A stretch of 64,000 nucleotides of DNA from Candidatus Kerfeldbacteria bacterium. Its GTDB lineage: Bacteria > Patescibacteriota > Patescibacteriia > UBA9570. The stretch covers positions 23,917 through 87,916 of the forward strand of contig JACPGK010000032.1 of NCBI GenBank assembly GCA_016182495.1, written 5' to 3'. Below are positions 1,176-22,282 of this stretch, piece after piece; the stretch's first letter is position 1, and each line of letters starts with the position of its first letter. The position numbers and the translations under genes are program-made. A model generated the notes under the pieces. That model had not been told where the DNA came from and did no database searches. It saw only the letters and a list, made by a program, of their open reading frames with translations.

Positions 1176-2990
1176 ATGAATCAAATTCGGAACGTCGCCA
1201 TTATTGCACACGTTGACCATGGTAAAACTACCTTGGTGGATGCTTTATTGCGTCAATCAAAAACCCACCTGGGTAAAGAATTAGCCGACTCCGATTTAAT
1301 CATGGATAGCAACGAGCTTGAACGTGAACGCGGTATTACCATTTTTTCAAAAAATGCCGCCATTCAATGGGGCGATACCAAAATTAATATCATTGATACC
1401 CCTGGTCATGCCGATTTTGGTGGCGAAGTAGAACGAGTGCTCACTATGGCCGATGGCTGCTTATTGTTAGTGGACGCCAAAGAAGGCCCCATGCCGCAAA
1501 CTCGGTTTGTGTTAAAAAAAGCTTTGGCCATGAAGCTAAAAACCATTGTAGTGATTAATAAAATTGATAAAGCCGATGCCCGCTGTAACGTAGTGCTCAA
1601 TAAAACCTTTGATTTGTTTATTGAATTAGGGGCCGATGATGCGGCTGCTGATTTTCCAGTCATTTACGCCTCGGCCAAACAAGGCAAAGCTGGCCTGGAA
1701 GCCAACTTAAACACGATGCAAAATATCACACCAATTTTTGAAGCGATCATCCAACATGTTCCAGCCCCAACTGGTGATGCCAGTCAACCTTTGCAATTAC
1801 TAGCCAGCAATATTACAGCTGATAATTTTAAGGGACGGGTAGCTACTGGGAGAATTTATAATGGTACTATTCAAGCTGGACAAACCGTTACTCATATTAA
1901 TCGACAAGGTGTTCAAAAAAACTATCGCTTAGTTTCGCTAATGACATTCCATGGTTTGCAACGCATTGAAGCCGATCAAGCCAGCGCCGGCGATATTGTA
2001 GCCGTAGCTGGTATCCCTGATATTACCATTGGCGAAACCTTGGCCGATGCGCAGCATCCACAAGCCTTACCGTTGTTAAGCATTGAAGAGCCAACTGTCA
2101 AAATGACCTTTACCGTCAATAATTCACCGTTGGCTGGTAAGGAAGGCGATTTTAGCACATCACGACAAATTCGCGAACGCTTATACAAAGAATTAGAAAC
2201 CGATATGGCCTTACGGGTTGAAGATGATCTCAATGGAGATTGGACAGTATCTGGTCGAGGCGAACTGCATCTAGCTATTTTGATTGAACGAATGCGGCGA
2301 GAGGGATATGAATTTCAGGTATCACGCCCGAAAGTAATCACTCGAATAATTGACGGTAAAACGTTAACACCATATGAACGCGTCTACATTGAAGTACCAG
2401 AAGAACACTCCGGCGTAGTGATTCAAAAATTAGGGAGCCGCCATGGTACCATGCAAGATATGACCAGCGATAATGGCCTGGTGTTTCTTGAATTTGTTAT
2501 TCCAACCCTAGGCCTGTTTGGTTACCGCAGTGAATTTTTAACCGATACCCGTGGTTTGGGCATTATCAACACCATGTTTCATGACTATTTACCTGATCCT
2601 GGCAATTGGCCCGATCGCGATCAAGGCTCATTGGTAGCCCATGAAAGTGGCACCACCAACATGTATGGCTTACTGAATGTGCAAGATCGCGGCGTGCTGT
2701 TTATTGGTCCAGCGGTGACGGTATATAAAGGTCAAGTGGTTGGTCAACATTCTCGACCCAACGATTTAAGCGTTAATGTATGTAAAACCAAACAGCTATC
2801 CAACATGCGTTCAAAGGGTGACGGTACTAGCGAACATTTTAAAAGTCCACGCCTGATGGGATTAGAAGATGCTTTAGAATACATTGGTGATGATGAATTG
2901 GTTGAAGTAACTCCAAAAAATATTCGGATTCGTAAAATGGTATTGGATAAAGTGGATGAGCGGCGCAAACAACTGGGTATTACATCATAG
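1176..2990 (+). CDS. typA: Ribosome-associated translational GTPase TypA/BipA
   Basis: NVAIIAHVDHGKTTLVD, DTPGHADF and NKIDK G-motifs together with an EF-G-like domain order. The start is placed at ATG 1176 (MNQIRN...) because the track start at 1134 lies inside the promoter -35. Confidence 0.9.
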   Translation: MNQIRNVAIIAHVDHGKTTLVDALLRQSKTHLGKELADSDLIMDSNELERERGITIFSKNAAIQWGDTKINIIDTPGHADFGGEVERVLTMADGCLLLVDAKEGPMPQTRFVLKKALAMKLKTIVVINKIDKADARCNVVLNKTFDLFIELGADDAAADFPVIYASAKQGKAGLEANLNTMQNITPIFEAIIQHVPAPTGDASQPLQLLASNITADNFKGRVATGRIYNGTIQAGQTVTHINRQGVQKNYRLVSLMTFHGLQRIEADQASAGDIVAVAGIPDITIGETLADAQHPQALPLLSIEEPTVKMTFTVNNSPLAGKEGDFSTSRQIRERLYKELETDMALRVEDDLNGDWTVSGRGELHLAILIERMRREGYEFQVSRPKVITRIIDGKTLTPYERVYIEVPEEHSGVVIQKLGSRHGTMQDMTSDNGLVFLEFVIPTLGLFGYRSEFLTDTRGLGIINTMFHDYLPDPGNWPDRDQGSLVAHESGTTNMYGLLNVQDRGVLFIGPAVTVYKGQVVGQHSRPNDLSVNVCKTKQLSNMRSKGDGTSEHFKSPRLMGLEDALEYIGDDELVEVTPKNIRIRKMVLDKVDERRKQLGITS

Positions 2991-4317
2991 ACCATAACAA
3001 CCACAAACCCGAGGCCGTCATCACAATTAATAACGCGGTACCCAGCAGGTTCGATAGCCAGTTGTTACGATAGCGCTGCATGATAGTTTTGTTATTGGCA
3101 ATCAACAGAATAATCAAAATCAGTGGTGGCGCACATAACCCATTGAGAATGGCCGTATAATACAACATGGTAAATGGTGGTATACCGCTAAAATTAACCG
3201 CGATGCCAATAATCGTGGCTACGGCAATAGTGCCGTAAAATCCATGAGCCTGATGAAACGATCGGTATAACCCTTCGCGCCAACCCATGATTTCCGATAC
3301 CGCGTACGACATTGAGCCAGCTAATACTGGAATTGCTAGCAAGCCAGTACCAAGAATGCCTAAAGCAAACAACCAATACGTAGCTGGTCCAGCCAGGGGG
3401 CGTAACGCTTCGGCCGCTTCGGCAGCAGTGGTAATAGTAATAATACCGTGTTCCCCCAACGTGGCCGCACTGGTCAGCATGATAAAAAACATTATTACAT
3501 TGGAAAATAACATACCAATCATGGTATCAAGACGCATCGATTGAATATCAGCTCCGGCTACCCGTGGTTTAGTAGTATTCATATTGCGTAGCTTGTGGTT
3601 GGCTACAGCTTCTTCTACTTCTTCGCTGGTTTGCCAAAAAAATAAATAGGGCGAAAAGGTGGTGCCAAATATTGCTACAATGTTCATTATAAAATCTGGC
3701 GTCAAATTAAAACTCGGCAGTACCACCGCTTGAATTACAGTGGGCCAGTGTGGCTGCACTAAAAAGGCGGTTACAATATAAGCTACCAAAGTCACCGTTA
3801 AATATTTCAAATAGCGGGCGTAGACACGATAAGATAAACCAATTTCTAATGCTACGGTTATAATCGCTATACAAAATAACCACCAAATAGCCGGCCCGCC
3901 AAACAATAATTGACTCACCGCCGCCATGGCTCCAAGATTAGCGCCAATATTAACAACATTAGCGATACTTAATAATACAACGGTACCGTAGAGAATCGGC
4001 TTAGCATAATGTTGCTTCATCACCGCCGCTAACCCTCGACCAGTCACTAGGCCAATGCGACCGCACATTTCTTGAATAGCTACCATTAATGGCCAGGTGA
4101 ATAGAGCTGTCCACAATTGTTGATAATGAAACTGGACTCCGGTTTGTGAATACGTTCCAATCCCAGATGGATCATCATCGGAAGCACCAGTGATGAAACC
4201 AGGCCCAAGCTTGTGCCGGAGCGTCTTAAGCAATGAACGAATAGTCACAAAAGAACACAGGTCTTTAAGGCCAAAGCATAGGCAATGCCAAGCATAAAAG
4301 CCAAAATAATAACACAA
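2980..4317 (-). CDS. Nramp-family divalent cation transporter, a divergent NRMT-like variant with DPSG in place of DPGN; the start is uncertain and a GTG about 23 codons in is possible
   Basis: GPGFITGASDDDPSGIGTYSQTG (TM1 motif), about 11 transmembrane helices, and an Nramp-like TM6 region FGTTFSPYLFFWQ. Confidence 0.75.
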   Translation of the reverse strand: MCYYFGFYAWHCLCFGLKDLCSFVTIRSLLKTLRHKLGPGFITGASDDDPSGIGTYSQTGVQFHYQQLWTALFTWPLMVAIQEMCGRIGLVTGRGLAAVMKQHYAKPILYGTVVLLSIANVVNIGANLGAMAAVSQLLFGGPAIWWLFCIAIITVALEIGLSYRVYARYLKYLTVTLVAYIVTAFLVQPHWPTVIQAVVLPSFNLTPDFIMNIVAIFGTTFSPYLFFWQTSEEVEEAVANHKLRNMNTTKPRVAGADIQSMRLDTMIGMLFSNVIMFFIMLTSAATLGEHGIITITTAAEAAEALRPLAGPATYWLFALGILGTGLLAIPVLAGSMSYAVSEIMGWREGLYRSFHQAHGFYGTIAVATIIGIAVNFSGIPPFTMLYYTAILNGLCAPPLILIILLIANNKTIMQRYRNNWLSNLLGTALLIVMTASGLWLLWSMM

Positions 4318-4364: not shown

Positions 4365-5279
4365 TCATACTCTCAAATATCGGCCAATAGATAGCATACT
4401 ACTACCGACGGCTAATACTATTGATACCACCACTTGAAAGGCAAAAATATACCAAAAATGCTCTTGAAAAAATAAACTTAAACTAAAATTATACCCAGTG
4501 AAAAAATTATTAACATAGGGTGTGGCCGCAGCCATGGTTATCCACAACAACACCATAGCAATACTACTCGAAACTAAAGCGTACACTAGCCCTTCTAAAA
4601 TAAACGGAGCGCGCACAAACCAATTAGTCGCTCCCACTAATTTCATAATCCCCAATTCCTCACGATGCGCATAAATCGCCACCCGCACTGTATTAAACAT
4701 CATGATCACAGAAATGATTATAAAAATTAAACTCACTACTAACGCGCCTTGGTATAAACGCCGAATAATACTGGATAAGCGTTCAATCACCAATTGGTGA
4801 TCAGAAAAATTTTTATCTTGCACTAAAGTATCGTATTGTGAAGCCTCGAATTGTTGCGTAATCACAGCATAATCCTGCAAGGCGTAGGCTTGAATCACTA
4901 AACTGGCCGGTAACGGGTTATCGGTTAATTCGGCTAGGGCAGCGGCAATATTAGGATTATTGGCATGACTGGCTTTAAATTTTTCTAAGGCTTCATCACG
5001 TGATACATAACGAACGCTTTTGACTTCTGGGATACTTTGTAGCCACACTTGAGCAGTAATAACATCCTGCTCATCAACTTCGGGCTTGAAATAGATATCA
5101 ATATTAATTTTTTCTTCAACGGCTTGAACAGCTTGATCGGCTACAATGTTGAGCGTAGCCACTAAACTGGTGGTGAGTAAGGTAAGAGTCAAAATAAAAA
5201 TGGTAATAATTGATAACCATAAATTACGCCACACATTTTGGAAAGCAAATTTAGATGTACGATAAACAGTAATCAGCAT
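4365..5279 (-). CDS. ftsX: Cell-division ABC transporter permease FtsX
   Basis: FtsX N-terminus (MLITVYRTSKFAFQNVWRNLWLSIITIF), large extracellular loop, three C-terminal TM helices, and a position directly downstream of ftsE. Confidence 0.8.
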   Translation of the reverse strand: MLITVYRTSKFAFQNVWRNLWLSIITIFILTLTLLTTSLVATLNIVADQAVQAVEEKINIDIYFKPEVDEQDVITAQVWLQSIPEVKSVRYVSRDEALEKFKASHANNPNIAAALAELTDNPLPASLVIQAYALQDYAVITQQFEASQYDTLVQDKNFSDHQLVIERLSSIIRRLYQGALVVSLIFIIISVIMMFNTVRVAIYAHREELGIMKLVGATNWFVRAPFILEGLVYALVSSSIAMVLLWITMAAATPYVNNFFTGYNFSLSLFFQEHFWYIFAFQVVVSIVLAVGSSMLSIGRYLRV

Positions 5280-5281
5280 AG

Positions 5282-5962
5282 TTAAATAATATATTTACCT
5301 GATTGTTGATCAGATACAATGGTGCCATCGTCAATGCTAATCACCCGTTTACGCAAACGATTAACAATATCTTTATTATGCGTTACCAACATAATAGTGG
5401 TGCCAAGGGTGTTAATTTTTAACAGCAGCTCGATAATTTCTTGAGCATTAATAGTATCAAGATTACCAGTTGGTTCATCGGCTACTAATACTTTTGGTCG
5501 ATGAACTAAAGCTCGGCCAATGGCCACGCGCTGGCGCTGCCCACCGGATAGCTGATGCGGAAATTTATCACGTTTCTCATTCAAGCCAACCACTTTTAAC
5601 ACCTGCGGTACAATTCGGTTAATGTGCCCTTGATTCACCCCACACACTTCTAAAGCAAAGGCGACATTTTCATAGACGGTTTTTTTTGGCAGCAGCTTAA
5701 AATCTTGAAACACCATCCCCACCTGCCGACGCAACACCGGAATATCAGCCGACCGAACAGCTGTAATATCCCAGCTACCAATAATCACGCGGCCTTTACT
5801 GGGCCGCTCTTCAGCAATGACCATTTTAGCTAACGTAGTTTTGCCAGTACCCGATTGGCCAACAATCGAAACAAACTCGGCTGGTCGAATATGCAACGAT
5901 AAATCTCGAGCCGCGTAAGTATTATCCGAATAAATCTTGGTTACTTTATCAAACCGAATCAT
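5282..5962 (-). CDS. ftsE: Cell-division ABC transporter ATP-binding protein FtsE
   Basis: Walker A GQSGTGKTT, ABC signature LSGGQRQRVAIGRAL, Walker B VLVADEPTGNLD. Confidence 0.85.
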   Translation of the reverse strand: MIRFDKVTKIYSDNTYAARDLSLHIRPAEFVSIVGQSGTGKTTLAKMVIAEERPSKGRVIIGSWDITAVRSADIPVLRRQVGMVFQDFKLLPKKTVYENVAFALEVCGVNQGHINRIVPQVLKVVGLNEKRDKFPHQLSGGQRQRVAIGRALVHRPKVLVADEPTGNLDTINAQEIIELLLKINTLGTTIMLVTHNKDIVNRLRKRVISIDDGTIVSDQQSGKYII

Positions 5963-5980
5963 GCCACCCAGTATAGCACA

Positions 5981-6742
5981 TTACTGAACTTGTTGTACGG
6001 TTACAGCCACTACGCCAGCTGATAAATCAGCGATTTTAGCAAAATCGTCACGAGGTAAATCTACCACTCGCCCAGGAACAAACGGTCCAGTTGATACAAC
6101 AGTGCTATCAACTGATGCTTGGGTAGAAACATTGGTCACCCGAATCACGCTACCCAGCGGAAAATCATTGCTGGCGGCACCGTGCCAATCATACCAACTG
6201 GCATACCCTGCAATCATATCGCCAGAGCTGCTGGCTGATGCCTGAAATACAGCTACAATAGCGCTGCGATGACGAATACTAGCGCGCACCACTAAATGAG
6301 CGCTATCATCTTTTGTTTTCAAGCGCTGCCAGCGTTGTTGAGCAGGGTTCCATAGTTTGATTATTTTGGTGGTTTGTATTTGATCGGCTGGATATGATAA
6401 TTCAAGCCATACTTTTTTACGCAACTGTACCGGTTGACTATGACGTAATGTATAACGATACAAATCACCCACGAGCGGTTGATCACCAACCGGATACCGC
6501 TGTGGTTGGCGAACTTGTTCAATAGTCATCCCCACTCGTTTGAGTTGGCGCCAATGTTTAAAACTGCGCCCCGGTATGCCTACGGCAAAGGTACCAGCCA
6601 AATTGCGTAACGTATACCCTTGCCGAATAGTGGCTTGATGCAACACTGTACGCGCTGTGTTAGCGTTCGCAGCCTGACTGATTCCAGGAATGACTAAACT
6701 ACTTAGACTAATGATAATGGCTATACTCAAGCCGCGACGCAT
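5981..6742 (-). CDS. Secreted RlpA-like / 3D-type double-psi beta-barrel (DPBB) protein, a putative peptidoglycan-binding or lytic factor
   Basis: Signal peptide MRRGLSIAIIISLSSLVIPGISQA; C-terminal GYASWYDWHG...VIRVTNVS...GPFVPGRVVDLPRDDFAKIA matches the RlpA/DPBB pattern. Confidence 0.6.
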   Translation of the reverse strand: MRRGLSIAIIISLSSLVIPGISQAANANTARTVLHQATIRQGYTLRNLAGTFAVGIPGRSFKHWRQLKRVGMTIEQVRQPQRYPVGDQPLVGDLYRYTLRHSQPVQLRKKVWLELSYPADQIQTTKIIKLWNPAQQRWQRLKTKDDSAHLVVRASIRHRSAIVAVFQASASSSGDMIAGYASWYDWHGAASNDFPLGSVIRVTNVSTQASVDSTVVSTGPFVPGRVVDLPRDDFAKIADLSAGVVAVTVQQVQ

Positions 6743-6753
6743 AGGTGTAGAAG

Positions 6754-7173
6754 CTAGGATAAAAATGGTGAAATTTGTTCAACAATATCGTGTGGTACAA
6801 TATTGGATTTCACAAAATAGCCTTGAGCGCCAAGTTCTTCGGCTCGTTGCCGATCTTCCAAACCATCTAAATTGGTCATCACAAATACTGGTACATCTTT
6901 AAATTGTGACAAAGAGCGTAAATGCTGCAGTACCACAAAGCCACTACGCTGACTAAAATCTAAATGATCACCGGTTTTTTGAGGAATTAACAAATCCAAC
7001 AATATTACTTTAGGAAGCTGTTGTGAAGTAATGCACTCTTGAATAATGGCTTTGGCTTCCGATACAGTGGTGGCAGTCAGAATATCTTTAACAACCCGCT
7101 GTAAGGCTAAGCGATAAAGACTTAATAAACTGGGCTCGTCTTCAATCAATAAAATTCGAGATGAGCTTGACAT
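6754..7173 (-). CDS. Stand-alone response-regulator receiver domain (CheY-like)
   Basis: ILLIEDEP, phospho-acceptor context VILLDLLIP, conserved T/K positions (VFVMTNL...YFVKS); no output domain is present. Confidence 0.7.
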   Translation of the reverse strand: MSSSSRILLIEDEPSLLSLYRLALQRVVKDILTATTVSEAKAIIQECITSQQLPKVILLDLLIPQKTGDHLDFSQRSGFVVLQHLRSLSQFKDVPVFVMTNLDGLEDRQRAEELGAQGYFVKSNIVPHDIVEQISPFLS

Positions 7174-7217
7174 ACGGCAATTATATTACTATGTTTATAC
7201 TCGTTCGTCAAGAGTAG

Positions 7218-7290
7218 GCCCGCGTAGCTCAATTGGTAGAGCGACGGTATCGTAAACCGTAGGTCGTCAGTTCAAACCTGACCGTGGGCT
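7218..7290 (+). tRNA. tRNA-Thr (anticodon CGU); no CCA is encoded
   Basis: A cloverleaf was folded by hand: acceptor GCCCGCG/CGTGGGC (one G-U pair), D arm GCTC-AATTGGTA-GAGC, anticodon stem ACGGT/ACCGT with loop ATCGTAA, T arm GTCAG-TTCAAAC-CTGAC. Confidence 0.85.
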
Positions 7291-8276
7291 CAAAATGGTA
7301 CAGCTGTAGGCTCAACTAAAATACGCACCTGGGCTTGTTCGCGTTGTTGTTCTAGATAACTATCCAAATCAAATTTAATCAAAATATGACGGGCATGCAC
7401 CTGTTCAGGTTCGGTATCAGTGGCAGCTTTACGTTCGATCAGTTGAATCAAATGAAAACCAAATTCAGTTTGTACAATATCAGATAGTTGATTTGGCTCG
7501 GTTAAAGCAAAGGCCGCTTCTTCGAACGGTGCCACCATTTGGCCACGACTAAACCAACCCAAATCACCACCATTACTGGCCGAACCATCTTGGCTGTACT
7601 GCTCGGCTAAACTAGCAAATTGATTAGGATCAGCTTGGAGTTGCTGTTGTACATCGACCAGTTGTTGCCTAGCCGGAGCACCGTAACTATCGAACTCATT
7701 AGCCAATAAATAGTCCTGCAATTTTTGACGTAACACTAATTCTCGCACCACTTGCTGTTTAAAGTCATCAATCGTCCAACCATATAATTCTTCCAAGGTA
7801 GCTGCGATATCGGCTTCACTACCTTGAATTTGCGTAGCCACGAATTCCTGATAACTTTTATCAATTTCATCACTGGTAACAATCAAATCACGGTCGGCCG
7901 CTAACTGTTCAAGAAGAATCAATAAAATTTGACGGTCGAGTTCAGCGGTGGCGATTTCGCTTTTTTCTGGCAAAGCGCCCACTTGATCAACAAATGATGG
8001 ATCACTGGAAAACTGTTCAACTACTCGCCAAGCATCCGCCAAACTCTGCTGAAAATCTCGATAGGCAATCGACTGTTGATTAACCGTGGCAATAGGATAC
8101 GGAAACCACTGCACCATGTTAGCGGTAAATTGGTTTGATTGATTGAGTGTATAAAGGGCTGTGGCTGTATAGATAAATGGTGATACTACCAACACCAGTA
8201 GTACAATACTACCAATAATAATATACCGGCGTAAGTGATGCACTGCTTTGGTCGTTTCGGAAATAGCTTGATCCAT
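7290..8276 (-). CDS. Membrane-anchored PpiC/parvulin-type peptidyl-prolyl isomerase (PrsA/SurA-like foldase)
   Basis: N-terminal TM segment and C-terminal rotamase motif [21 protein letters not shown]...[10 protein letters not shown]. Confidence 0.7.
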
Positions 8277-10778: not shown

Positions 10779-12506
10779 ATGATTCATCCTGATCGAATCA
10801 AGCGTGTGTTGCTGAAGCATAGTATTGTTACAGAAAAAATTGCAGATGACTTAATTGCTCAAGCCAAACAAAAAAATGTCAACTTATTGATTTTTTTAGA
10901 ACAGCAAGAGCTTATTCCTGAAGAAGATTTATATGAAAAATTAGCCAGCGACTTTGCTGTACCGTTTATCAATCTGCAAAACGTTACTATCCCGCAACCA
11001 GTACTGGAAATACTACCTGAAGCCATTGCTCATACTCATGAAGTGGTAGTATTTGAATATAATCAAGCGGATCATAGCATTAAAATTGCCACCACTGACC
11101 CAGACGATTTGCAAACCATTGATTTTTTACGCAAAAAAACTGGCTGCACTGTAACGGTATACTTTACTACTCCAGCCAGTATTACAGCCGTCGTCAGCCA
11201 GTATCATAGCCATATTGAAAAAGAATTTGCTCTGTTTCAGCAACCCCTCGAGCGCGGTAATCAATTATCAGCTAGCGATATTACGCAAAATATCCCGATT
11301 ATTAAAATGGTGGATACCATTTTAGATTATGCCATTTTTCAAAATGCTTCAGATGTGCATATTGAACCGACCGATAAAAATATTGTTATTCGATTTCGGG
11401 TAGATGGTATTTTGCGTGACGTGATGACTTTACCAAAATCGATTCAATCTGGTTTAGTAGCCCGCATAAAAATTTTAGCTAACCTGAAATTAGATGAGCA
11501 TCGCTTACCACAAGATGGCCGACTGAATATTACAGCTAATGCGAAACGAGTGGCTGTACGGGTATCAATTTTGCCAGTGTACGATGGGGAAAAAATTGTC
11601 ATGCGGTTATTGGACGAATCAAAAAATATTTTAACACTAGAACAGCTTGGTTTAAATACTGTCGCTTTAGCCGTGTTGCGGCGACACATCACTAAGCCAC
11701 ACGGTATGATTTTAGCCACTGGTCCAACTGGTTCAGGCAAAACCACCACTTTATACACCGTGTTGAGCATTATGAATACTCCTGGGGTGAACATTTCAAC
11801 CATTGAAGATCCTATCGAGTACCGCATGAACCGAATCAATCAAAGCCAGGTGAATCCTAAAATTGGCTTTACCTTTGCTTCTGGTTTACGCTCACTGTTA
11901 CGCCAAGATCCTAATATTATTATGGTTGGAGAAATTCGTGATGACGAAACAGCTCAAATCGCTGCTCATGCGGCCATGACCGGGCATTTAGTACTATCAA
12001 CCTTACATACTAATGATGCTATTAGTGCCGTTTTTCGATTAGCGGAAATGGCCGTGCCTCATTTTTTAATTGCTTCAACTGTCAATGTTATTGTAGCGCA
12101 ACGTTTAGTCAGACGCATTTGTTCGGATTGCGTGCAAAGCTATCAATTAAATAAAGCCAGCATTGATGAAATTAGTCAGCGTTATAATTTAACCGATGTG
12201 CTGGATGGTTTTAAACGATTAGGTGAGGAATTAACTGAAGATGGCAGTTTAGAACATTTAAACTTTTTTCGGGGCGGAGGGTGCGCCAAATGTGGTGATA
12301 CTGGTTATCGCGGTCGTTTGGGTTTATACGAGGTGTTTGAAATGACTGAAGCGGCTAGTCAAGCCGTGTTGCGTCAGGCTAGTAAAGAAGAGCTATTACA
12401 GATTGCGATGCGAGATGGTATGATTACCATGGCACAAGATGGTTTTGTAAAAGCCAAGCGCGGTTTAACAACGATTGAAGAAATACTACGGGTAGCTAAA
12501 GAATAA
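10779..12506 (+). CDS. pilB: Type IV pilus assembly ATPase PilB (GspE family)
   Basis: N-terminal T2SSE_N-like domain, Walker A GPTGSGKTTTLY, Asp/His boxes, and a tetracysteine CSDC...CAKCGDTGYRGR. Confidence 0.9.
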   Translation: MIHPDRIKRVLLKHSIVTEKIADDLIAQAKQKNVNLLIFLEQQELIPEEDLYEKLASDFAVPFINLQNVTIPQPVLEILPEAIAHTHEVVVFEYNQADHSIKIATTDPDDLQTIDFLRKKTGCTVTVYFTTPASITAVVSQYHSHIEKEFALFQQPLERGNQLSASDITQNIPIIKMVDTILDYAIFQNASDVHIEPTDKNIVIRFRVDGILRDVMTLPKSIQSGLVARIKILANLKLDEHRLPQDGRLNITANAKRVAVRVSILPVYDGEKIVMRLLDESKNILTLEQLGLNTVALAVLRRHITKPHGMILATGPTGSGKTTTLYTVLSIMNTPGVNISTIEDPIEYRMNRINQSQVNPKIGFTFASGLRSLLRQDPNIIMVGEIRDDETAQIAAHAAMTGHLVLSTLHTNDAISAVFRLAEMAVPHFLIASTVNVIVAQRLVRRICSDCVQSYQLNKASIDEISQRYNLTDVLDGFKRLGEELTEDGSLEHLNFFRGGGCAKCGDTGYRGRLGLYEVFEMTEAASQAVLRQASKEELLQIAMRDGMITMAQDGFVKAKRGLTTIEEILRVAKE

Positions 12507-12513
12507 GTATACT

Positions 12514-13578
12514 ATGGCAAAAAAAATAACGTTCGCGATTCGGTCGGTACCGCCAGTTGATAAAATCTTTTTTGTACAAAATTTAGCGTTAATGGTGAAA
12601 ACCGGTTTCTCTATTTCTGATGCATTACAAGCCCTGATTAAGCAAACAAAAAATAATCTGTTTAAACGGACCATTGCCCAATTGCATCATGATGTATTGG
12701 CCGGGGTCAATTTTGCTTCAGCCTTAAGCAAACACCCGGCGGTATTTAATGAATTGTTCGTCAATTTAGTCGCCACTGGAGAAATCAGTGGTAATTTAGA
12801 AAATACGCTCCAAGAAATTGCCGTTCAACTCAAAAAAAGCTACGCCTTAAAACGTAAAATTCGCAATGCCATGATTTATCCGGCATTGATAGTGACGGTG
12901 ATGATTATTGTTGGAGTCGGTGTATTCGTGTTTGTGGTGCCAAAAATTCTTGATCTGTACACACAAAATAACTATGTGCTGCCTCTGCCTACTCGAATTA
13001 TTTTGTGGTTAAGCACTTTTCTGCAACACAATGCTCTAGTGATCAGTGTCAGTGTGATTGCTATAGTACTTGGCATGATTGGTTTGTGGCGCACAACCGG
13101 CGGACGGCAGGTATTCGACAAATTATTACTGCGCTTACCAATTGTTGGAGAAATTATTAAAAAAGTGACCATTGCAAAAATGATGCGGATTCTTAATTCA
13201 TTAATCGTCACGGATATTCCAATTGTCAAAAGTTACCAATTGATCGCCCATGCGTTAGGCAATACCAGTTACCGTAACCATTTATTACAATCGAGCGAAT
13301 TACTGACTAAAGGCGGCAGCTTGTATTCAACCATTTCAAGCCGAGCAGATTTATTTAACCCCGTAATCGCTCAAATGGTGAATGTTGGTGAACAAACCGG
13401 AGCATTGGATAAAATTACTGCAGAAATTGCTACCTTTTATGAAGATGAGGTAGAGGCAGTGATGTCTAACTTAACGGTTATTATTGAACCAGTACTGATG
13501 GTAGCCATTGGTGCTGGCGTTGGATTTTTAGCCGTTGCCATTGTTATGCCAATTTATGCCTTGGTGGAACAAATCTAA
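12514..13578 (+). CDS. pilC: Type IV pilus platform protein PilC (GspF family)
   Basis: Two T2SSF-like repeats and three TM helices, immediately downstream of pilB. Confidence 0.8.
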   Translation: MAKKITFAIRSVPPVDKIFFVQNLALMVKTGFSISDALQALIKQTKNNLFKRTIAQLHHDVLAGVNFASALSKHPAVFNELFVNLVATGEISGNLENTLQEIAVQLKKSYALKRKIRNAMIYPALIVTVMIIVGVGVFVFVVPKILDLYTQNNYVLPLPTRIILWLSTFLQHNALVISVSVIAIVLGMIGLWRTTGGRQVFDKLLLRLPIVGEIIKKVTIAKMMRILNSLIVTDIPIVKSYQLIAHALGNTSYRNHLLQSSELLTKGGSLYSTISSRADLFNPVIAQMVNVGEQTGALDKITAEIATFYEDEVEAVMSNLTVIIEPVLMVAIGAGVGFLAVAIVMPIYALVEQI

Positions 13579-14884
13579 CGGCGTTACTATTCTTGAAGCC
13601 ATTATTGCCGTAGCGGTGATGGCGTTAGTTTCTGGCAGTGTATTGGGGTTGTTATGGGGTGGCTTAAAATCAGCTGATGCTAATCAACGCCGCCAACTGG
13701 CGGTTGGTTTAGCCAATCAGCAACTCGAAATTATTAAAAATTTACCATACGATTCTGTTGGTACAACTGGTGGCGTACCATCTGGCAACTTGCCACAGAC
13801 ACAAACCAGTGTCATTAATAATACTACTTATACTATTACGACAGATGTGCATTATGTCGACGATAACTATGATCAAAAAACTCCTAATGATACTTTAAAT
13901 ACCGATTATAAACGAGTTGAAATTATTGTAACTTGGCCACACACTGATCAGGTGGTTGAAACATCAACGCTGATTGTTCCAAATGGTATTGAAAACAATG
14001 CTACTGGTGGCACCTTGTGGCTAGAAGTGTATGATCCTACTACTGATCCAGTCACACTCATTAATAAAGCCACGGTTACCATTTTGGCACCAACCGTAAC
14101 GCCCGCTGTATCGTTGAGCGTTAAAACTGATACTGATGGCCGCTATATTTTACCAGGCGCACCGGTTGGCACAGAAGCGTATCAAATTACGGTAACAAAA
14201 ACTGGTTATGGTTCAGCCCGTACCTATACAGCTGATATCGAGATGAATCCTAATCCCAATCCAGCCGATTTAAGTGTAGCGCAAGGTGAAGTGACGACAG
14301 AATATTTTCAAATTGCTCGCTTAGCCGACAGTATTAGTTTGCATACGCGAGATATCACGACTGATGCACCAGTGACTGTAGCCTTTGCTATACATAGTGA
14401 TAGTGTAATTGGCAGCGATGGTAGTGGTAATGAAATTTATGAATACAGTACTATCAATCTAACTGATGCGGCTGGCGGCTGGCAGTTGAATGATCCCGAA
14501 TCTGGTAACTATACTATTATTTTTGATGAAGCTGCCATTGGTTATGTGGTCGCTGGCACAACTCGCGATATTCCATTTGAAGTATTACCAAACGCTAACG
14601 AATCAGTCACGATCTATTTGCACAGCGCTATTCCATTTTCTGGTTTACTAACGGTGGTGGATGCGAATAACGCTCGCTTAGCCGACGCTACCGTACGTTT
14701 GTACACGGCTGATTTAACGTTCGATGTCACGCAAACAACTACCAGTTACGGTCAGACATTTTTTGATACGATTACGGCCGGCTCGTATTTAATTGATGTT
14801 ACCGCAACGGGGTATGCCGTGTATAATGGTTCAATCATCATTGGTGGTAATGATGAACAGACTATTTATATGGCTACGCTTTAA
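13556..14884 (+). CDS. Large pilin-like protein (about 440 aa) with a prepilin-type N-terminus and beta-rich repeats (carboxypeptidase-regulatory-like); possibly the major pilin
   Basis: Class III signal KSNG|VTILEAIIAVAVMALV with Glu at +5 and repeated VT(K/A)TGY segments; the start is set at Met8 of the track ORF. Confidence 0.55.
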   Translation: MPWWNKSNGVTILEAIIAVAVMALVSGSVLGLLWGGLKSADANQRRQLAVGLANQQLEIIKNLPYDSVGTTGGVPSGNLPQTQTSVINNTTYTITTDVHYVDDNYDQKTPNDTLNTDYKRVEIIVTWPHTDQVVETSTLIVPNGIENNATGGTLWLEVYDPTTDPVTLINKATVTILAPTVTPAVSLSVKTDTDGRYILPGAPVGTEAYQITVTKTGYGSARTYTADIEMNPNPNPADLSVAQGEVTTEYFQIARLADSISLHTRDITTDAPVTVAFAIHSDSVIGSDGSGNEIYEYSTINLTDAAGGWQLNDPESGNYTIIFDEAAIGYVVAGTTRDIPFEVLPNANESVTIYLHSAIPFSGLLTVVDANNARLADATVRLYTADLTFDVTQTTTSYGQTFFDTITAGSYLIDVTATGYAVYNGSIIIGGNDEQTIYMATL

Positions 14885-14886
14885 TT

Positions 14887-15510
14887 ATGATATCAATCAA
14901 CCGCCGTGGCTTTACCTTGATTGAAGCGGTGGTAGCTATGCTGATTACTGCCTTAATGATATTGGTTGGATCTGATTTATTAATTAATGGCAATCGTTTA
15001 GCCAACACCATCAGTGAACAAACTGATGCTATTACTACGGCCCGAGTAGCCCTTGATCCGGTAGGTAAAATTGTGCGCGAATTACGCAGTGGTGAAAATG
15101 GTGAGTACCCAATTATAGTAGCTGAAGCTGATTCATTCATTTTTTATTCTGATGTTGATAGCGACGCCCTCACTGAACAAGTTGAATACACCGTGGTTGG
15201 CACCGAATTGCGGCAACGCCTAATTGAACCAAGTGGTGATCCTGCCACTTATGATCCCGCCGCTACAGTTGAAACAGTTATTGCTAATGGCATTGTCAAC
15301 ACCAGTCTTACGGCTGAACCAATTTTCCGCTATTATACCAGTGACTATCCAACTGATACTACGAACAATCCTTTACCAACTCCGGCTGATGTTACTGCTA
15401 TTACGTTGGTAGCAATTCACCTTGACATCAATATTAATCCAAACCAGTTACCCGAAACGAGCGCCGTGGAGACATTTATTCAACTACGTAACCTTAAAAC
15501 CAACTTATGA
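14887..15510 (+). CDS. Type IV minor pilin / pseudopilin
   Basis: Canonical prepilin motif RRG|FTLIEAVVAMLI. Confidence 0.7.
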   Translation: MISINRRGFTLIEAVVAMLITALMILVGSDLLINGNRLANTISEQTDAITTARVALDPVGKIVRELRSGENGEYPIIVAEADSFIFYSDVDSDALTEQVEYTVVGTELRQRLIEPSGDPATYDPAATVETVIANGIVNTSLTAEPIFRYYTSDYPTDTTNNPLPTPADVTAITLVAIHLDININPNQLPETSAVETFIQLRNLKTNL

Positions 15511-16871
15511 AACGAGGCAGCAACCTTATTATCGCCATTATCTTTGGTGGTTTAATTGTGATGAGTAGCGGTGCTTTAATTAGTTTATTAATTGTGCAAC
15601 AACGTACCGTGCGTAACAACGTTGCTAAAGAACAAGCTCTGCAAGTTGCCGAGGCTGGTTTAAATCGCTACCGTTGGATATTAGCGCACGACCCTGAAGA
15701 TTTTGCGGGCCAAGATAAAGATTATGTAGACGCCGATGGTGATACCATCGGACACTATACCGTAACAGTGACGCCTCCTCAAATTGGCTCGACAGTGGTG
15801 ACTTTAACGGCTACTGGTTGGACCACAGCCTATCCAAATGTTCAACGAACCCTACGCGCCCGCTATGGTCAAGGATCATACGCCGAATATGCCGTGCTGA
15901 CCGATGCGAATATTTGGTTTGGTGAGGAAGAAGAAGTGCACGGAAAATTACATTCTAATGGCGGTATTCGAATGGATGGCACGGTAGATTCACAAACTAC
16001 CTCCATTCAAGAAACCTACATTTGTGGAGCTGAACATGGCTGTGATGATGAAGAAAAACCAGGAATTTGGGGTGATGGCGGTGATACTCAATACTGGGAT
16101 TTTCCAATTGCCGACGGGGTTGATTTTGATGCTATCACTCTAGATTTAGAAACGATGCATGAGGTGGCTGAAATTGATGGTATTTTATTAGGAGATTCGG
16201 GTGAATATGGCTATCATATTGTATTTAATAATACCGGCACGTTCACGGTGTATGTGGTGACGAAATTAAAAAATTCCGCCTATGGTTCGGATGGAAAAAG
16301 TTGGCGCTATTTTTCCTATGATATTAAACAGGAATCTGTGTTAGCTGGATATGAAAACGTAGCCTTACCAGCCAGTGGCATTATTTTTGTAGAAGATGAC
16401 ACTTGGGTATCGGGTCAAGTGGCTGGTCGAGTAACTGTTGCGGCCGCCAAGTTGCCAGAACCAGGCGATGAAACCATCGATATTATGATTCCAGATAACA
16501 TTACCTATTATCCTGATCGCACCAGTGGATCGGTACTAGGGTTAGTGGCGCAGCACGACGTGACTATTTCATTGGAAGTGCCAACTGATCTGACTATTGA
16601 TGCCGCTTTGCTGGCTCAAACTGGCCAAGTGTATCGAGTGTATTTTCATCCTAATTCAAATAAAACCCATGCGGTAAAAAATTATATTGAAACCTACGGC
16701 ACAGTGATTACGCATGGTATTTGGACCTGGAGTTGGGTGAATGCCAGTGGCAATGTTACCTCTGGCTTCCAACAAACCAACTCGATTCATGATCCAGCCT
16801 TAGTATATGCTCCGCCACCTTATTTTCCCACCAAAGATGAGTACACCTTTTTATCGTGGGAGGAGCTATGA
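15507..16871 (+). CDS. PilX-N-domain minor pilin-like protein (454 aa)
   Basis: N-terminal TM segment followed by ALQVAEAGL (the PilX_N signature A.QAAEAGL); large Gly/Asp-rich C-terminal region. Confidence 0.5.
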   Translation: MKRGSNLIIAIIFGGLIVMSSGALISLLIVQQRTVRNNVAKEQALQVAEAGLNRYRWILAHDPEDFAGQDKDYVDADGDTIGHYTVTVTPPQIGSTVVTLTATGWTTAYPNVQRTLRARYGQGSYAEYAVLTDANIWFGEEEEVHGKLHSNGGIRMDGTVDSQTTSIQETYICGAEHGCDDEEKPGIWGDGGDTQYWDFPIADGVDFDAITLDLETMHEVAEIDGILLGDSGEYGYHIVFNNTGTFTVYVVTKLKNSAYGSDGKSWRYFSYDIKQESVLAGYENVALPASGIIFVEDDTWVSGQVAGRVTVAAAKLPEPGDETIDIMIPDNITYYPDRTSGSVLGLVAQHDVTISLEVPTDLTIDAALLAQTGQVYRVYFHPNSNKTHAVKNYIETYGTVITHGIWTWSWVNASGNVTSGFQQTNSIHDPALVYAPPPYFPTKDEYTFLSWEEL

Positions 16872-17770
16872 TTTTCTTTAATGGCCAAACCAGAGTAGGC
16901 ATCGATTTAAGCGACTATAAAGTGCGCTTAATTGCCTTGACTGGGACTCGTAAACCAAGTATTCGAACATTTTGCGAAATAGACATACCAACCGGCACTA
17001 TCAATGAAGGGGCTATTCAAAAAACCGAAGTAGTGGTGCAGTTACTCAAAACCCTAGCTCGTCATTGTAAAGGATTACACTGGCACGATCGTACTGTACG
17101 AGTTGGTATACCAGAACAACAAAGTTTTATTACCACCGTATCGCTCGATAGTAACCACAAAGGTGATAACATTGATCAAGTGTTAGAAGTGATACCGTTT
17201 AAAAAAGAAGAACTCTACTATGATGTGCATGAACACCGTACCAGACAAGCTATGTCCATCGCAGCTGCTCGCAAAGCGTTTGTTGATCAGTATTTACAAA
17301 TATTTTCAGCGGCCAATTTCCATGTGGTAGCATTATATAGCGAAGCCGAGGCGATGGCCACTGCCTTGCTCGATAAAACAACCTCGACCACTGCCGGGAT
17401 TATTATTATTGATCTTGGTCGGGCTCGTACTACGGTAATTTTTTGCTGTAAAGGGTTAGTTTATTTTACAACCAGTTATCCTAGCGTGCTGACTGGAGAT
17501 ACTCTGAATCAAGGCAATTTCTTGGCGGTAACGCAACAAGCCATGGCTTTTTATGGTCAGCATTATGCTCAATATGCTACACTGCAACAACTCGTATTGT
17601 GTGGCAGCGGTGCCTATCAGCCAAATCTGGCCACTACTACGCAAACGGCCTGTGCTATTACTACTGTGCTCGGTAATCCATTACAACATATTCGCAGTAA
17701 CCACTTTACTAAAAAATTAAATCGTCCGCTAACATTTACTACGGCTATTGGCTTGGTATTGTATGCTTAA
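16868..17770 (+). CDS. pilM: Type IV pilus assembly protein PilM (actin-like ATPase fold)
   Basis: VGIDLSDYKVRLI, IIIDLGRARTT and LCGSGA motifs. The start is set at the ATG that overlaps the upstream stop (ATGA), with GGAGG just upstream. Confidence 0.7.
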   Translation: MIFFNGQTRVGIDLSDYKVRLIALTGTRKPSIRTFCEIDIPTGTINEGAIQKTEVVVQLLKTLARHCKGLHWHDRTVRVGIPEQQSFITTVSLDSNHKGDNIDQVLEVIPFKKEELYYDVHEHRTRQAMSIAAARKAFVDQYLQIFSAANFHVVALYSEAEAMATALLDKTTSTTAGIIIIDLGRARTTVIFCCKGLVYFTTSYPSVLTGDTLNQGNFLAVTQQAMAFYGQHYAQYATLQQLVLCGSGAYQPNLATTTQTACAITTVLGNPLQHIRSNHFTKKLNRPLTFTTAIGLVLYA

Positions 17771-18299
17771 CATTTTACCAGCTGAACAAAAAAATATTCT
17801 CGAACAACAACAGTGGTACTGGGTATTGCGCCAAAGTGCTGTTATTATTATTGCCACTATCCTGCTGGTAAATGGATTAATTATCGGCTGTCAGCAACTG
17901 TTACAACTATGGCAACGTAGCTTAGCCCAACAAACTGATACCATTATTTTAGATGATGACACGGAAAACCGTCTTAAAGCCAAACTCGATCGACTGAACA
18001 ATTTGATTCGAGGCACAAAAAATATTCAAACTACACAGGCTGAACCAGTCAGTATTATCACTGCTTTAATGCCAGCTATCCCCGATCAAGTAGTAATAAG
18101 TAAACTGACCATAGAAATGACTGATAGTAGTGTAACCATTATTGGTACCGTGCGCGACCGAGCGATGTTATCAGTTGTCCGCCAACAATTAGAACAAGCC
18201 GCCATTGATTCTGATCGTTTAACCGAACCTAATTTTGTGGTGACTAATTTAACTTCCGGGGACACTATTCCGTTCACCTTTAGTGCTAGTATACTATGA
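17763..18299 (+). CDS. pilN: PilN-like bitopic membrane protein
   Basis: MLNILPAEQK (the PilN INLLP motif), a TM segment, and a periplasmic coiled-coil domain. Confidence 0.6.
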   Translation: MLNILPAEQKNILEQQQWYWVLRQSAVIIIATILLVNGLIIGCQQLLQLWQRSLAQQTDTIILDDDTENRLKAKLDRLNNLIRGTKNIQTTQAEPVSIITALMPAIPDQVVISKLTIEMTDSSVTIIGTVRDRAMLSVVRQQLEQAAIDSDRLTEPNFVVTNLTSGDTIPFTFSASIL

Positions 18300-18838
18300 A
18301 ATTCACCAAACCATCCTATTTAATTCGAGGGATCATTTGGTTCGGCACAGCAGTGTTACTGCTACTGATTAGTATAATTTTTATTATCCGGCCAGGACAG
18401 AGTGCTATTGGCACTACCACTGCTGCTGTTCGTACTGTCATAGCCGAACAAACTACTCCACAATCAGCTACCTCAAATTTAGTACGAGCCGTAAAACGAG
18501 AACAGGATATTGATGCCATGACCATTCAGTTATTAAATAATTACATTGATCCAGCCGCCCCACTCGATTTTATCAACCTACTTGAACAGGCGGCGACTAG
18601 TCGATCGGTTGATGTATCATTTACTATTACTGATCCTATTCCTAGCCATATTCAAGCTGGAGAACCAGCTCCGGTTCGTTTAACGCTGGCAATAACTGGT
18701 GAATTAGTAGCTGTGCTTGAATTTATCAATGATGTTGTAACCCAGCCAATGCAATTAGATATTGCAGCCATCACTATCCAACCAGCTGAACATGGTGCGA
18801 TTCAAGCAAATGTAACAGTAACATCTCACTGGCAATGA
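18296..18838 (+). CDS. pilO: PilO-like bitopic membrane protein
   Basis: N-terminal TM segment plus a roughly 150-aa extracytoplasmic domain, translationally coupled (ATGA) to pilN. Confidence 0.45.
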   Translation: MKFTKPSYLIRGIIWFGTAVLLLLISIIFIIRPGQSAIGTTTAAVRTVIAEQTTPQSATSNLVRAVKREQDIDAMTIQLLNNYIDPAAPLDFINLLEQAATSRSVDVSFTITDPIPSHIQAGEPAPVRLTLAITGELVAVLEFINDVVTQPMQLDIAAITIQPAEHGAIQANVTVTSHWQ

Positions 18839-19152
18839 ACAATTATCAATCCCTGGTTAAAAAATATCTGCCATTCAGCTGCAGTGTACTAGCACTTGGC
18901 TATGTTGGTTACATGATTTGGTTTATTGTGCAAACCAGTGTCTTGCCACTGTTTTCTGATCAAACGTTATTACTGAACAGCGAACAGTATAGTATCCCCG
19001 ATGCAGCCGTACAACGACAAATTGATTTTGCTGACCAGCGCCGTACTAACCGGCCCAATACTGCTGATGTGATTGATCGCTTTGATCATGGTAATGAAGG
19101 AGTTCTTACCAGCACGAATGATGCCTCCGTTGAACAATTACCTACTCCTTAG
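18835..19152 (+). CDS. Small membrane protein at the end of the pil operon (possible PilP analogue)
   Basis: One TM helix and an ATGA overlap with the pilO-like gene. Confidence 0.3.
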
Positions 19153-21715
19153 CTTGATGACTGTTAAAAGTTAACTTACCTTGACGATAATCAACCGTGA
19201 TAGTAGTGCCAGCCGGTAACTTACCTTCAATTAACCGCCAAGCTAATTCATCGGTGATGGTATTTTGAATAATGCGTTGTAATGGACGCGCCCCAAACAC
19301 TGGATCAAAACCAATGCTGACCAAATGGTCAGTGGCCGCTGCCGTACACTGTACCGTTACTCCTTTATCAGCCAATCGATCAATCACTCGCTGCAGCTGC
19401 AGCTGAACAATGGCCTGCATATCAGTGGCCGTGAGTTGCTGAAAAATAATACTATCATCAATCCGATTTAAAAACTCTGGACGAAATGCCTGACGCAGCA
19501 CTGTTTGTACAGCTTGACGCTGTTGATCGGGTTGGTTAGCTAACTGCATAATTTCTGGACTGGCTAAATTTGAAGTCATAATAATGATGACATTCTTAAA
19601 ATCAACTGTTCGACCTTTGGCATCGGTTAATCGTCCATCATCTAATACCTGCAGTAATATGTTCAATACTGCTGGATGGGCCTTTTCAATCTCATCAAAT
19701 AAAATTACTGTATAGGGGTGACGCCGAACAGCCTCGGTGAGTTGGCCGCCTTCTTCGTACCCAACGTAACCAGGCGGTGATCCAATTAATCGGGCTACAC
19801 TATGTTTTTCCATATACTCCGACATATCAATCCGTGTGAGCATTTTTTCACTGGTAAACAATACCTGGGCAAGGGCTTTGGCCAATTCTGTTTTACCTAC
19901 GCCAGTTGGCCCTAAAAAAATAAATGATCCAAGTGGCCGATCTTCGGCCTGAATCCCAGCCCGACTGCGCCGAACCGCTCGGGCTACTGCGGTGATGGCT
20001 TGGGTTTGTCCAATCACCCGTTCACCCAACTGCTTCTCTAAATGTGTCAACTGCTCGGTTTCAGTGGTAAGCATTTTAGTCACCGGAATACCAGTCCAAC
20101 GTGATACCACTTGGGCAATATCTTCTTCCGTCACTTCATCTTTCAAAATTTTCTGATCGCGTTGAATATCGGCTAACTGTTGCTGGGCTTGGTGGATAGT
20201 TTTTTCCAGAGCAGGAATTTTACCATAAGTAATTTCGGCCACGGCCTGTAAATCGCCTAACCGTTCTGCCTGAATGGCCTGCTCCTTCAGTTGATCAATG
20301 TGCTTACTGGCGGTTGAAATTTGATCAATGTATTTTTTTTCATTCTGCCAGTGTAATTGTATTTCTTTTAACTGTTCCCCCAGTTCAGCCAAATCGTGTT
20401 CTAGGGCAGTTAAACGCTGCTGCGATTGGGTGTCGTGTTCTTTAGTCAAAGCCGCCCGTTCAATTTCTAACTGACGAACTCGTCGTTCTAAACGATCCAG
20501 CGCTGTTGGTTTACTATCACGCTCAAGCTGTAATACCGAACAGGCTTCATCCATCAAATCAATGGCTTTATCTGGTAAAAAACGATCAGTAATATAGCGA
20601 GTCGATAACAACACCGCTGCCACTACAGCGTTATCGCGAATTTTAACCCCATGATGAACTTCATATTTTTCTTTAATACCGCGTACAATAGAAATGGCAT
20701 CGGCTGTAGTGGGCTCTTCTACCATGACTGGTTGAAATCGTCGTTCCAGCGCCGCATCTTTTTCAATATAACGACGGTATTCTTTAATAGTGCTAGCGCC
20801 AATGGCATGTAATTGGCCACGCGCTAACGTTGGCTTCAATAAATTGCCAGCATCCATAGCACCTTCAGCACTGCCAGCTCCAATAATCGTATGCAATTCA
20901 TCAATAAATAAAATGATTTGGCCATTGGACTGTTCAATTTCTTTCAACAAGGCTTTTAAACGATCTTCAAACTCGCCACGATATTTGGTACCAGCCACTA
21001 GGGCTCCTAAATCTAGGGCTAGTAACTGTTTGCGCTTTAAGCTTTCTGGCACATCACCATCAACGATCTTTTTAGCTAGACCTTCAACGATGGCGGTTTT
21101 ACCAGTACCGGGTTCGCCTACTAATACCGGATTATTTTTACTACGCCGTGATAATATTTGCATGACGCGACGAATTTCATCATCCCGACCAATCACCGGA
21201 TCAATTTTTCCAGTTCGAGCCAAAGCTGTAAAATCGTGAGTATATTTAGCCAACACCTCATACTTACTTTCCGGTTCTGCATCAGTGACGCGTTGTGATC
21301 CACGAATGGTTTTAAGCACATCTAATACTTGTTGTTGAGTGAATGGCAGCAGTTTGGTAATAGCAGTATTATCTAGTAAAGCTAATAATAGATGCTCGGT
21401 GCTAACGTAATCATCCTTCAATTGAGCCGCTGACTGTTCAGCCCGGGTTAAAACCTGTCGTAAATCGTTACCAATATACGGTTCACCGCCAGTAACCTTA
21501 GGTAGAGCGTCCAGTTCAGCCTGCAGGCTACGTTGCACGGCTGCGGGTTGATGATTTAACTTCAGTACCAACTTTGGTACCAAACCTTCTGATTGTTGTA
21601 CTAAAGCCAAAGCCAAGTGTGGTGGCTTAATTTCTTGATGTGAACTGTGCTCGGCCAGCTGTATAGTATGCTGGATAGCTTCAGCCGCTTTGGTAGTAAA
21701 ACGATTTAAATTCAT
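19142..21715 (-). CDS. clpB: Disaggregase chaperone ClpB
   Basis: Two AAA+ modules (GEPGTGKTA / GPTGVGKTE) separated by a long coiled-coil M-domain, plus a Clp_N repeat N-terminus. The preferred start is ATG 21715 (MNLNRF). Confidence 0.9.
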
Positions 21716-21726
21716 TAGCACTCTCT

Positions 21727-21763: not shown

Positions 21764-22282
21764 CTAGCGCTGATACAAAAAAATAGTAATAGCCTGTTGT
21801 CCTGGCTTATCAACTATAGTAGGCTGCCAACCGACAATTGGAAAAACATAAGAAATAACTCGACTGCCTGGTTTCAGTTCACGTTCTAATTTTAAGCGCA
21901 AGGTATGACGTAATTTTTCGGGCATACCAAACACATACACCACATCAGCGGTAGCTAAATTAATTCGGAACAGGTTGCGCCAATAAAACTGCACATTGGT
22001 TCGGCCTGAACGCCATTGTCGAAACTTACATACCAGCCATAACGGCCAGGCTAACTCCACGCCAATAGCTTGGCCAGAACAATGTTCAGCAACATACAAT
22101 ACCGTTTTACCGTTACCACAGCCTAAATCATAAAACGTTTCTGTTGGTTGTAGCTGGGCTAAGCGCAGTATCCGCGGTAAATCCTTTTGCCACATTGGTA
22201 CCCATGGAGCCAGCGACCAGCTAGGTAGAGCCATCATTGCCACCAACCCAAACAGTAGAATGAATAGTAGCCACCACATCAC
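21764..22282 (-). CDS. Class I SAM-dependent methyltransferase (small, membrane-anchored)
   Basis: Motif I YDLGCGNGK and an N-terminal hydrophobic segment. Confidence 0.55.
   Translation of the reverse strand: MMWWLLFILLFGLVAMMALPSWSLAPWVPMWQKDLPRILRLAQLQPTETFYDLGCGNGKTVLYVAEHCSGQAIGVELAWPLWLVCKFRQWRSGRTNVQFYWRNLFRINLATADVVYVFGMPEKLRHTLRLKLERELKPGSRVISYVFPIVGWQPTIVDKPGQQAITIFLYQR

Follow-up and report, generated by a model that had tools for sequence, protein, structure and literature searches.

A conserved FtsEX module in Patescibacteria that includes a secreted ZU5/GAIN-like and DPBB protein as candidate wall factor

A gene cluster around ftsE and ftsX is described here from a 64,000-nt stretch of DNA of an uncultured, ultrasmall Candidatus Kerfeldbacteria bacterium (Patescibacteriota; contig JACPGK010000032.1, positions 23,917 to 87,916 of the forward strand), hereafter the window, whose own numbering is used. 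Four open reading frames (ORFs) follow one another on its minus strand in the order response regulator (RR; 6754..7173), secreted protein with a double-psi beta-barrel (DPBB) domain (5981..6742), ftsE (5282..5962) and ftsX (4365..5279), the gaps between them being 11, 18 and 2 nt, in full agreement with an earlier, preliminary description of the window. The secreted protein combines the DPBB domain with a large N-terminal domain (N-domain) of ZU5/GAIN-like fold, and is called N-DPBB below. We find that N-DPBB, ftsE and ftsX are the invariant core of a real, conserved and lineage-specific FtsEX module. It seems to us somewhat more probable than improbable that N-DPBB is the cognate FtsEX-associated wall factor, held and gated by FtsX via the ZU5-like domain and provided with a phospho-signalling input.

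The arrangement is conserved in eleven independent loci that encode N-DPBB (the window, L081, L083, L084, L085, L086, L088, L089, L093, L094 and L096). The ftsE gene directly follows the N-DPBB gene in all eleven, and ftsX follows ftsE in ten, the contig of L093 ending inside ftsE. Intergenic distances range from -4 to +23 nt, and stop/start overlaps of 1 or 4 nt (L083, L088, L089 and L094) suggest translational coupling. Identity to the window falls to 29-35% for the DPBB proteins and lies between 42 and 67% for FtsX, and the genes 3' of ftsX vary in nearly every locus. By contrast, ftsX was found within 7 kb of an ordinary RlpA/DPBB gene in none of 80 control loci, four of them from other Patescibacteria (11/11 versus 0/80; Fisher p 2e-14, a value that ignores phylogenetic non-independence). 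The control loci come from a contig scan with full-length alignment and are mostly RlpA genes of other phyla caught by the shared DPBB motifs. A degenerate DNA pattern for W-Y-D-W-H-G-A-A yielded one more independent locus (L096/L097) together with four chance matches, while a metagenome scan with the FtsX protein returned no relatives. The 45 or more homologues of N-DPBB are under clear purifying selection.

The two division genes are recognizable at the protein level. FtsE (226 aa), an ABC ATPase, has its best match in TIGR02673 (E 3e-78; 262.4 bits, marginally short of the cut-off of 264.85) and shares 59-85% identity with the FtsE encoded after the DPBB gene in every related locus. FtsX (304 aa) matches the Pfam families FtsX_ECD (E 1.6e-16) and FtsX (E 1.1e-15), and has four transmembrane (TM) helices with a large extracellular domain, composed of Porter and X-lobe parts, between TM1 and TM2. 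This domain is canonical (residues ~46-172, nt 4764-5144) and aligns over its length, X-lobe segment included, with the solved FtsX of E. coli, P. aeruginosa and V. cholerae. The scores with the NCBIfam FtsX models (184-186 bits) lie under the equivalog cut-offs of 225-255, which indicates that the window FtsX is a divergent orthologue.

N-DPBB of the window, 253 aa long, matches a hypothetical protein from a Candidatus Kerfeldbacteria metagenome-assembled genome at 100% identity. Residues 1-24 (6671..6742) form a classical Sec signal peptide, MRRGLSIAIIISLSSLVIPGISQA followed by AN, with a type I cleavage site (ending in PGISQA, then AN) and without a lipobox Cys. This assignment was made by reading the sequence and not with a dedicated predictor; in the AlphaFold2 (AF2) model the N-terminal helix has a low predicted local distance difference test (pLDDT) score. 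The model, based on 45 homologues, is otherwise confident (mean pLDDT 91.3) and shows two beta-rich domains, the chain being all-beta besides the signal peptide and short helices. The C-terminal one (residues 176-253; 5984..6217) matches Pfam DPBB_1, in agreement with the DPBB type first described. The label 'RlpA-like' given at that time suits the DPBB domain, but not the whole protein. Sequence comparison places N-DPBB outside the RlpA family, because it lacks a lipobox and a SPOR domain (no Pfam match; the protein ends with the DPBB domain) and reaches only 30.1 bits with TIGR00413, the RlpA model, against a cut-off of 82.15 and with just 86 residues matched. Moreover, an expansin-type second domain is absent, and RlpA has no counterpart of the ZU5-like N-terminal domain. 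RlpA is a septal-ring lytic transglycosylase, active in P. aeruginosa and V. cholerae and inactive in E. coli, and a role in septal wall processing is presumed for N-DPBB as well. However, rlpA genes do not lie beside ftsEX (0/80); that of E. coli is situated between mrdB and dacA.

The DPBB domain shares with RlpA the ASWY, GPF and R-x-(I/V)-D-L motifs. Its D228 (codon 6059-6061) is the equivalent of the catalytic Asp of RlpA, D168 of P. aeruginosa in the numbering of PMC9712689, and is invariant in the 45-sequence family alignment; ASWY, GPF and R225 are invariant too, which suggests selection on an active-site-like groove. At the catalytic site E. coli RlpA reads RVISLS, other RlpAs RxIDLS and the window protein VVDLPR. 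The E. coli enzyme, with Ser in place of the catalytic Asp, is inactive (PMC9712689). We considered whether the DPBB domain is catalytically dead, as NDRGPF of RlpA aligns with VSTGPF here in a PDB profile alignment, and dropped this suspicion because the Asp of IDLS, which is D228, and not that of NDRGP is the catalytic one (PMC9712689 and our alignment).

It is nevertheless conceivable, if quite improbable in our judgement, that N-DPBB is a non-catalytic adaptor or loosening factor, whose DPBB domain would bind glycan strands in the manner of expansins or loosenins without cutting them, or serve as an EnvC-like activator or scaffold for another hydrolase. Many DPBB proteins with the same Asp, among them expansins, loosenin and papain inhibitor, are non-lytic, and these three, together with PA4485 (PDB 4avr), a protein of unknown function, are among the top fold matches. 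S217 replaces the Asp of NDRGP (VSTGP here), so the second Asp of RlpA is absent, and a loop of ~17 residues between WYD and AASN, corresponding to WY and AA(H) in RlpA, is deleted. There are precedents both for a non-catalytic DPBB protein in division, E. coli RlpA (PMC9712689), and for an inactive FtsEX partner, EnvC (PMC11627006). However, D228 is the very residue whose loss, Asp to Ser in IDLS, inactivates E. coli RlpA, and it is invariant with ASWY, GPF and R225; nor does a second hydrolase gene travel with the operon. PA4485, the mini-DPBB proteins, expansins (EXLX1) and loosenins also differ from N-DPBB in being single-domain or DPBB+CBM63 proteins with no link to FtsEX, and expansins and loosenins act, without lysis, on polysaccharides of plants or fungi. 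The loop deletion may be a wider trait among candidate phyla radiation (CPR) bacteria, independent of the linkage to FtsEX. A DPBB protein of Moraniibacteriota (321 aa; L003 7001-7315, CP175956.1) has a short WY...AAN loop, keeps NDRGPF and is not encoded beside ftsX.

The larger part of the protein is the N-domain of ~140 aa (residues 28-168; 6239..6661), which the preliminary description had missed. It belongs to no Pfam family and gives no Pfam sequence match to ZU5 or GPS, but its modelled fold is the beta-sandwich of ZU5, GAIN subdomain B and FIIND (Foldseek to ankyrin ZU5A-ZU5B, E 1.8e-5). Proteins of this superfamily self-cleave between H-[L/F] and [S/T/C] in the turn that leads into the final strand (PMC3482391), and in bacteria ZU5 domains are found as parts of polymorphic toxins and surface proteins (Zhang et al. 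2012, PMC3482391). In the window protein this turn is R157-H158-R159, and the motif is lost in the clade to which it belongs. The sister clade and the longer variants have I-H-L-P-Y-A-I-V-G-V-F-E, which is GPS-like except that Pro stands at the position of the Ser/Thr/Cys nucleophile in most sister-clade members. The full H-[LF]-[STC] motif is absent from all 45 sequences of the family alignment. Self-cleavage of the window N-domain was thus rejected, the motif being absent there and incomplete in all 45 aligned members, and the domain is probably of ZU5/GAIN ancestry with self-cleavage lost. A few N-domain copies in longer variants show Ser or Thr at the nucleophile position (TLSY in P0048, SLTH in P0043 and TLSF in copy 2 of P0072), and copy 1 of P0063 (HLSYAILAVFE) has a complete H-L-S. 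Judging from such motifs, some members of the family might still be self-cleaving.

An exhaustive HMMER search found the N-domain in 25 cluster representatives among 1.84 billion; its alignments were too variable for peptide search patterns. Four domain architectures are seen, namely N-domain with DPBB, two N-domains with DPBB, N-domain with S11 DD-carboxypeptidase, and N-domain with both DPBB and S11. Two tandem N-domains precede the DPBB domain in P0060, P0062, P0063, P0068 and P0072 (L093 and L094), the S11 fusion is found in P0057 and P0071 (L092 6001-7284), and all three domain types are combined in P0050. Its occurrence on two peptidoglycan-active domain types, DPBB and S11, marks the N-domain as a portable module shared by secreted proteins that act on peptidoglycan, and it is more likely than the DPBB domain to be the docking or regulatory module. 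A HAMP histidine kinase is encoded two genes from the S11 fusion of L092. One family member, P0041, carries the NCBI label 'Candidatus Thermoplasmatota archaeon'; as the rest of the family is confined to Patescibacteria, faulty binning is the probable cause.

A two-component gene is the constant neighbour of the core, although it is not always co-transcribed with it. The RR of the window (139 aa; Pfam Response_reg E 2.4e-11) consists of a receiver without an output domain. Its phospho-acceptor set (D12, D60, T100 and K122) is intact and conserved in four orthologues, by which it is classed as a putatively phosphorylatable, CheY-like regulator. The gene just upstream of the DPBB gene is an RR in five loci (window, L081, L084, L089 and L094) and a GAF-HisKA-HATPase kinase in four others (L083, L085, L086 and L096); in two it is not visible, so that a two-component gene is adjacent in nine of the nine loci with a visible upstream gene. 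The kinases of the sister clade (L083 4614-5918, L085 4644-5972, L086 3196-5238; also L096/L097) are soluble in L083 and L085 and have N-terminal TM segments in L086. Because a GAF kinase takes the position of the RR in the sister clade, the two-component link appears conserved and not incidental. The term 'orphan', applied earlier to the receiver, is accurate within the 64-kb window, where tblastn (E 1e-3) found no cognate GAF kinase and neither HisKA nor HATPase matched in Pfam scans that covered almost every ORF of at least 120 aa, but it fails across the family.

In the RR clade the gap between the RR and DPBB genes is -1 to 11 nt, which supports their co-transcription there; in L094 the two genes are separated by an antisense tRNA-Gly. 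The DPBB genes of the kinase clade have a promoter of their own (TTGAC(A/G)-17-TAnnnT). In the window a putative promoter, TTGACG-17 nt-TAATAT (7183..7211, minus strand), ends 9 nt before the ATG of the RR. The geometry TTGAC(G/T)-17-TA(A/T)NNT with exactly 9 nt to the ATG is shared by the window, L081, L084 and L089, and the bases that immediately precede the ATG (CGT or TGT) are conserved as well. We infer a conserved promoter that would give a leaderless or near-leaderless RR mRNA, since the consensus match recurs with the same geometry in the three orthologous loci. The region has just as many promoter-like sites as expected from shuffling, and both ORF lists and scans for a promoter consensus are produced mechanically; one might therefore suspect chance or an annotation artefact, with ORFs that form no functional unit. 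Such an explanation is vanishingly improbable, being effectively refuted by four significant family matches, the 45 or more homologues, a confident fold, and the conserved synteny and promoter position.

How the module might work can be proposed by analogy with the known systems, EnvC-AmiA/B in E. coli, PcsB in S. pneumoniae, RipC in M. tuberculosis and CwlO in B. subtilis. Here too a canonical FtsE and FtsX are genetically tied to a secreted peptidoglycan-active protein, and an ATP-driven mechanotransmitter is proposed to gate an extracytoplasmic wall factor at division. The cytoplasmic ATPase FtsE and the membrane mechanotransmitter FtsX would be produced jointly with their cognate partner outside the cytoplasm. 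A cell that has no outer membrane must have some means of retaining a soluble enzyme that it secretes, and the ZU5/GAIN-like N-domain may hold the partner at FtsX or at the septal wall. The compact DPBB domain would then cleave or loosen glycan strands in the manner of RlpA-type lytic transglycosylases, and the ATP cycle of FtsE, via the extracellular domain of FtsX, would gate the activity or positioning of the partner, such that the septal wall is cut only in division. A two-component signal could enter through the co-transcribed RR here and the GAF kinase in the sister clade. Since the RR has no DNA-binding output domain, contact with other proteins on the cytoplasmic side is its most likely mode of action. 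A more specific version, which we regard as clearly doubtful, is a new coupling mode in which the extracellular domains of FtsX do not tug on a coiled coil but engage the degenerate GAIN/ZU5-like sandwich and thereby unmask a mini-DPBB lytic transglycosylase at the septum, while a phosphorelay of GAF kinase and RR directly tunes the FtsE ATPase. The GAIN/ZU5-like fold is a force-sensitive module in eukaryotic adhesion GPCRs.

The candidate partner differs from EnvC, PcsB, RipC and CwlO in several respects. According to a review of 2024, these cognate partners are coiled-coil proteins that engage hydrophobic residues of the X-lobe (PMC11627006), whereas no coiled coil is present in the AF2 model of N-DPBB (pLDDT 91.3) and its non-catalytic module is a ZU5/GAIN-like beta-sandwich. 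The catalytic type is DPBB, of the glycan-strand lytic transglycosylase or expansin class, and not amidase activator, CHAP or NlpC/P60 peptidase. Moreover, its gene lies directly upstream of ftsE in the same operon and has a two-component gene attached. Full-text literature searches turned up no report of an FtsEX partner that is of DPBB/RlpA type or otherwise lacks a coiled coil, and no paper on partners of FtsEX in Patescibacteria. Conventional partner domains (M23, NlpC/P60, CHAP and amidase) were not found in the Pfam scans of almost all window ORFs of at least 120 aa; a canonical coiled-coil partner may be encoded outside the 64 kb.

The genes might alternatively be co-expressed without any contact between their products. 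The operon would then serve timing only, the N-domain would bind the wall as a stand-in for SPOR and not FtsX, and FtsEX would use another partner or act only cytoplasmically with FtsZ and FtsA. We rate this, the main rival reading, as unlikely. The N-domain is also found on an S11 DD-carboxypeptidase away from ftsEX, as expected of a generic wall-targeting module: no ftsEX was found near the N-domain+S11 gene of L092, the one such gene examined. The net charge of the N-domain ranges from +17 to -7 across loci, and charge complementarity between it and the extracellular domain of FtsX, which we had considered, is not conserved. In addition, the unit belongs to a larger cluster with MraY, bPH, DivIC and peptidyl-prolyl isomerase (PPIase) genes, where co-regulation alone could hold genes together. 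These points weigh against FtsX as the anchor of N-DPBB, as do the missing coiled coil and the possible partner elsewhere, and as the altered residues, the shortened loop and the non-lytic relatives of the DPBB domain do against its enzymatic role; the eleven loci, furthermore, all belong to a single broad lineage, without being fully independent of each other. On the other side, the genes adjoin immediately, in a fixed order and often with overlaps, in all eleven loci, this adjacency is kept in L093 and L094 where the MraY-DivIC-PPIase neighbourhood is absent, and ordinary DPBB/RlpA genes are never beside ftsX. Coupling so tight at ~30% protein identity is rarely kept by co-regulation alone. 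The idea of an FtsEX-linked wall factor, raised in the preliminary description, is therefore strengthened by the presence of the signal peptide, the confirmed DPBB fold and the conserved arrangement.

The surroundings set the unit in a division and envelope cluster, as genes for MraY, a bPH protein, DivIC and a PpiC/SurA-like PPIase (Pfam) lie upstream on the same strand. A tRNA-Thr(CGT) gene on the opposite strand (7218..7291, plus; ARAGORN) marks the upstream boundary of the four-gene unit and separates the RR gene from the PpiC/SurA-like gene; the same antisense tRNA is found directly upstream of the unit in L081, L083-L086, L089 and L090. Downstream of ftsX the window has an Nramp transporter gene (2980-4317, minus), and a same-strand tRNA-Gln(TTG), not seen in the window, follows ftsX in L081, L083, L085, L086, L089 and L094. 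A type IV pilus or type II secretion system (T2SS)-like cluster (10779-18838, plus), with a PilB-type ATPase, T2SSF, pilin-like proteins with N_methyl motifs and PilM, is divergent from the MraY-to-FtsX block, and its PilB-type gene keeps the divergent position in L081, L083, L084, L085 and L089. Several other features of the window were recorded. Two ClpB/Clp-type double-AAA+ genes stand nearly in tandem (19142-21721 and 22282-25047, both minus), with a small methyltransferase-like ORF (21764-22282) between them; in the second, the first AAA module is weaker and the N-terminus bears a long extension. A giant ORF of 2846 aa (33314-41854, minus) has no Pfam match at E 1e-3. An ORF of 183 aa (520-1071, minus) carries an H-F-H-G (HUH-like) motif that recalls Y1 transposases of the IS200/REP type, with no Pfam match at E 1e-4.

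FtsEX is the paradigm for switching on dangerous wall-cutting enzymes from inside the cell, and the partners studied so far are, to our knowledge, all coiled-coil proteins that act on peptide bonds directly or via amidases. N-DPBB is a well-supported candidate for a new variant of this FtsEX-hydrolase theme. If the more specific version of our proposal is true, it would be the first glycan-strand-cleaving FtsEX effector without a coiled coil and the module the first case of direct two-component input into FtsEX. A conserved partner with another docking fold and a domain that cleaves or binds glycans would show the FtsX mechanotransmitter to be more versatile than current structural models assume. 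The attached RR or kinase suggests that, at the protein level, hydrolysis at the division site can be controlled by two-component signalling. As found on enzymes of peptidoglycan, the ZU5/GAIN-like domain represents a new bacterial domain family of small size, whose clear genomic context lends itself to functional study. As far as we know, the cell biology of CPR/Patescibacteria is almost a blank, and the module would offer a handle on the separation of their daughter cells.

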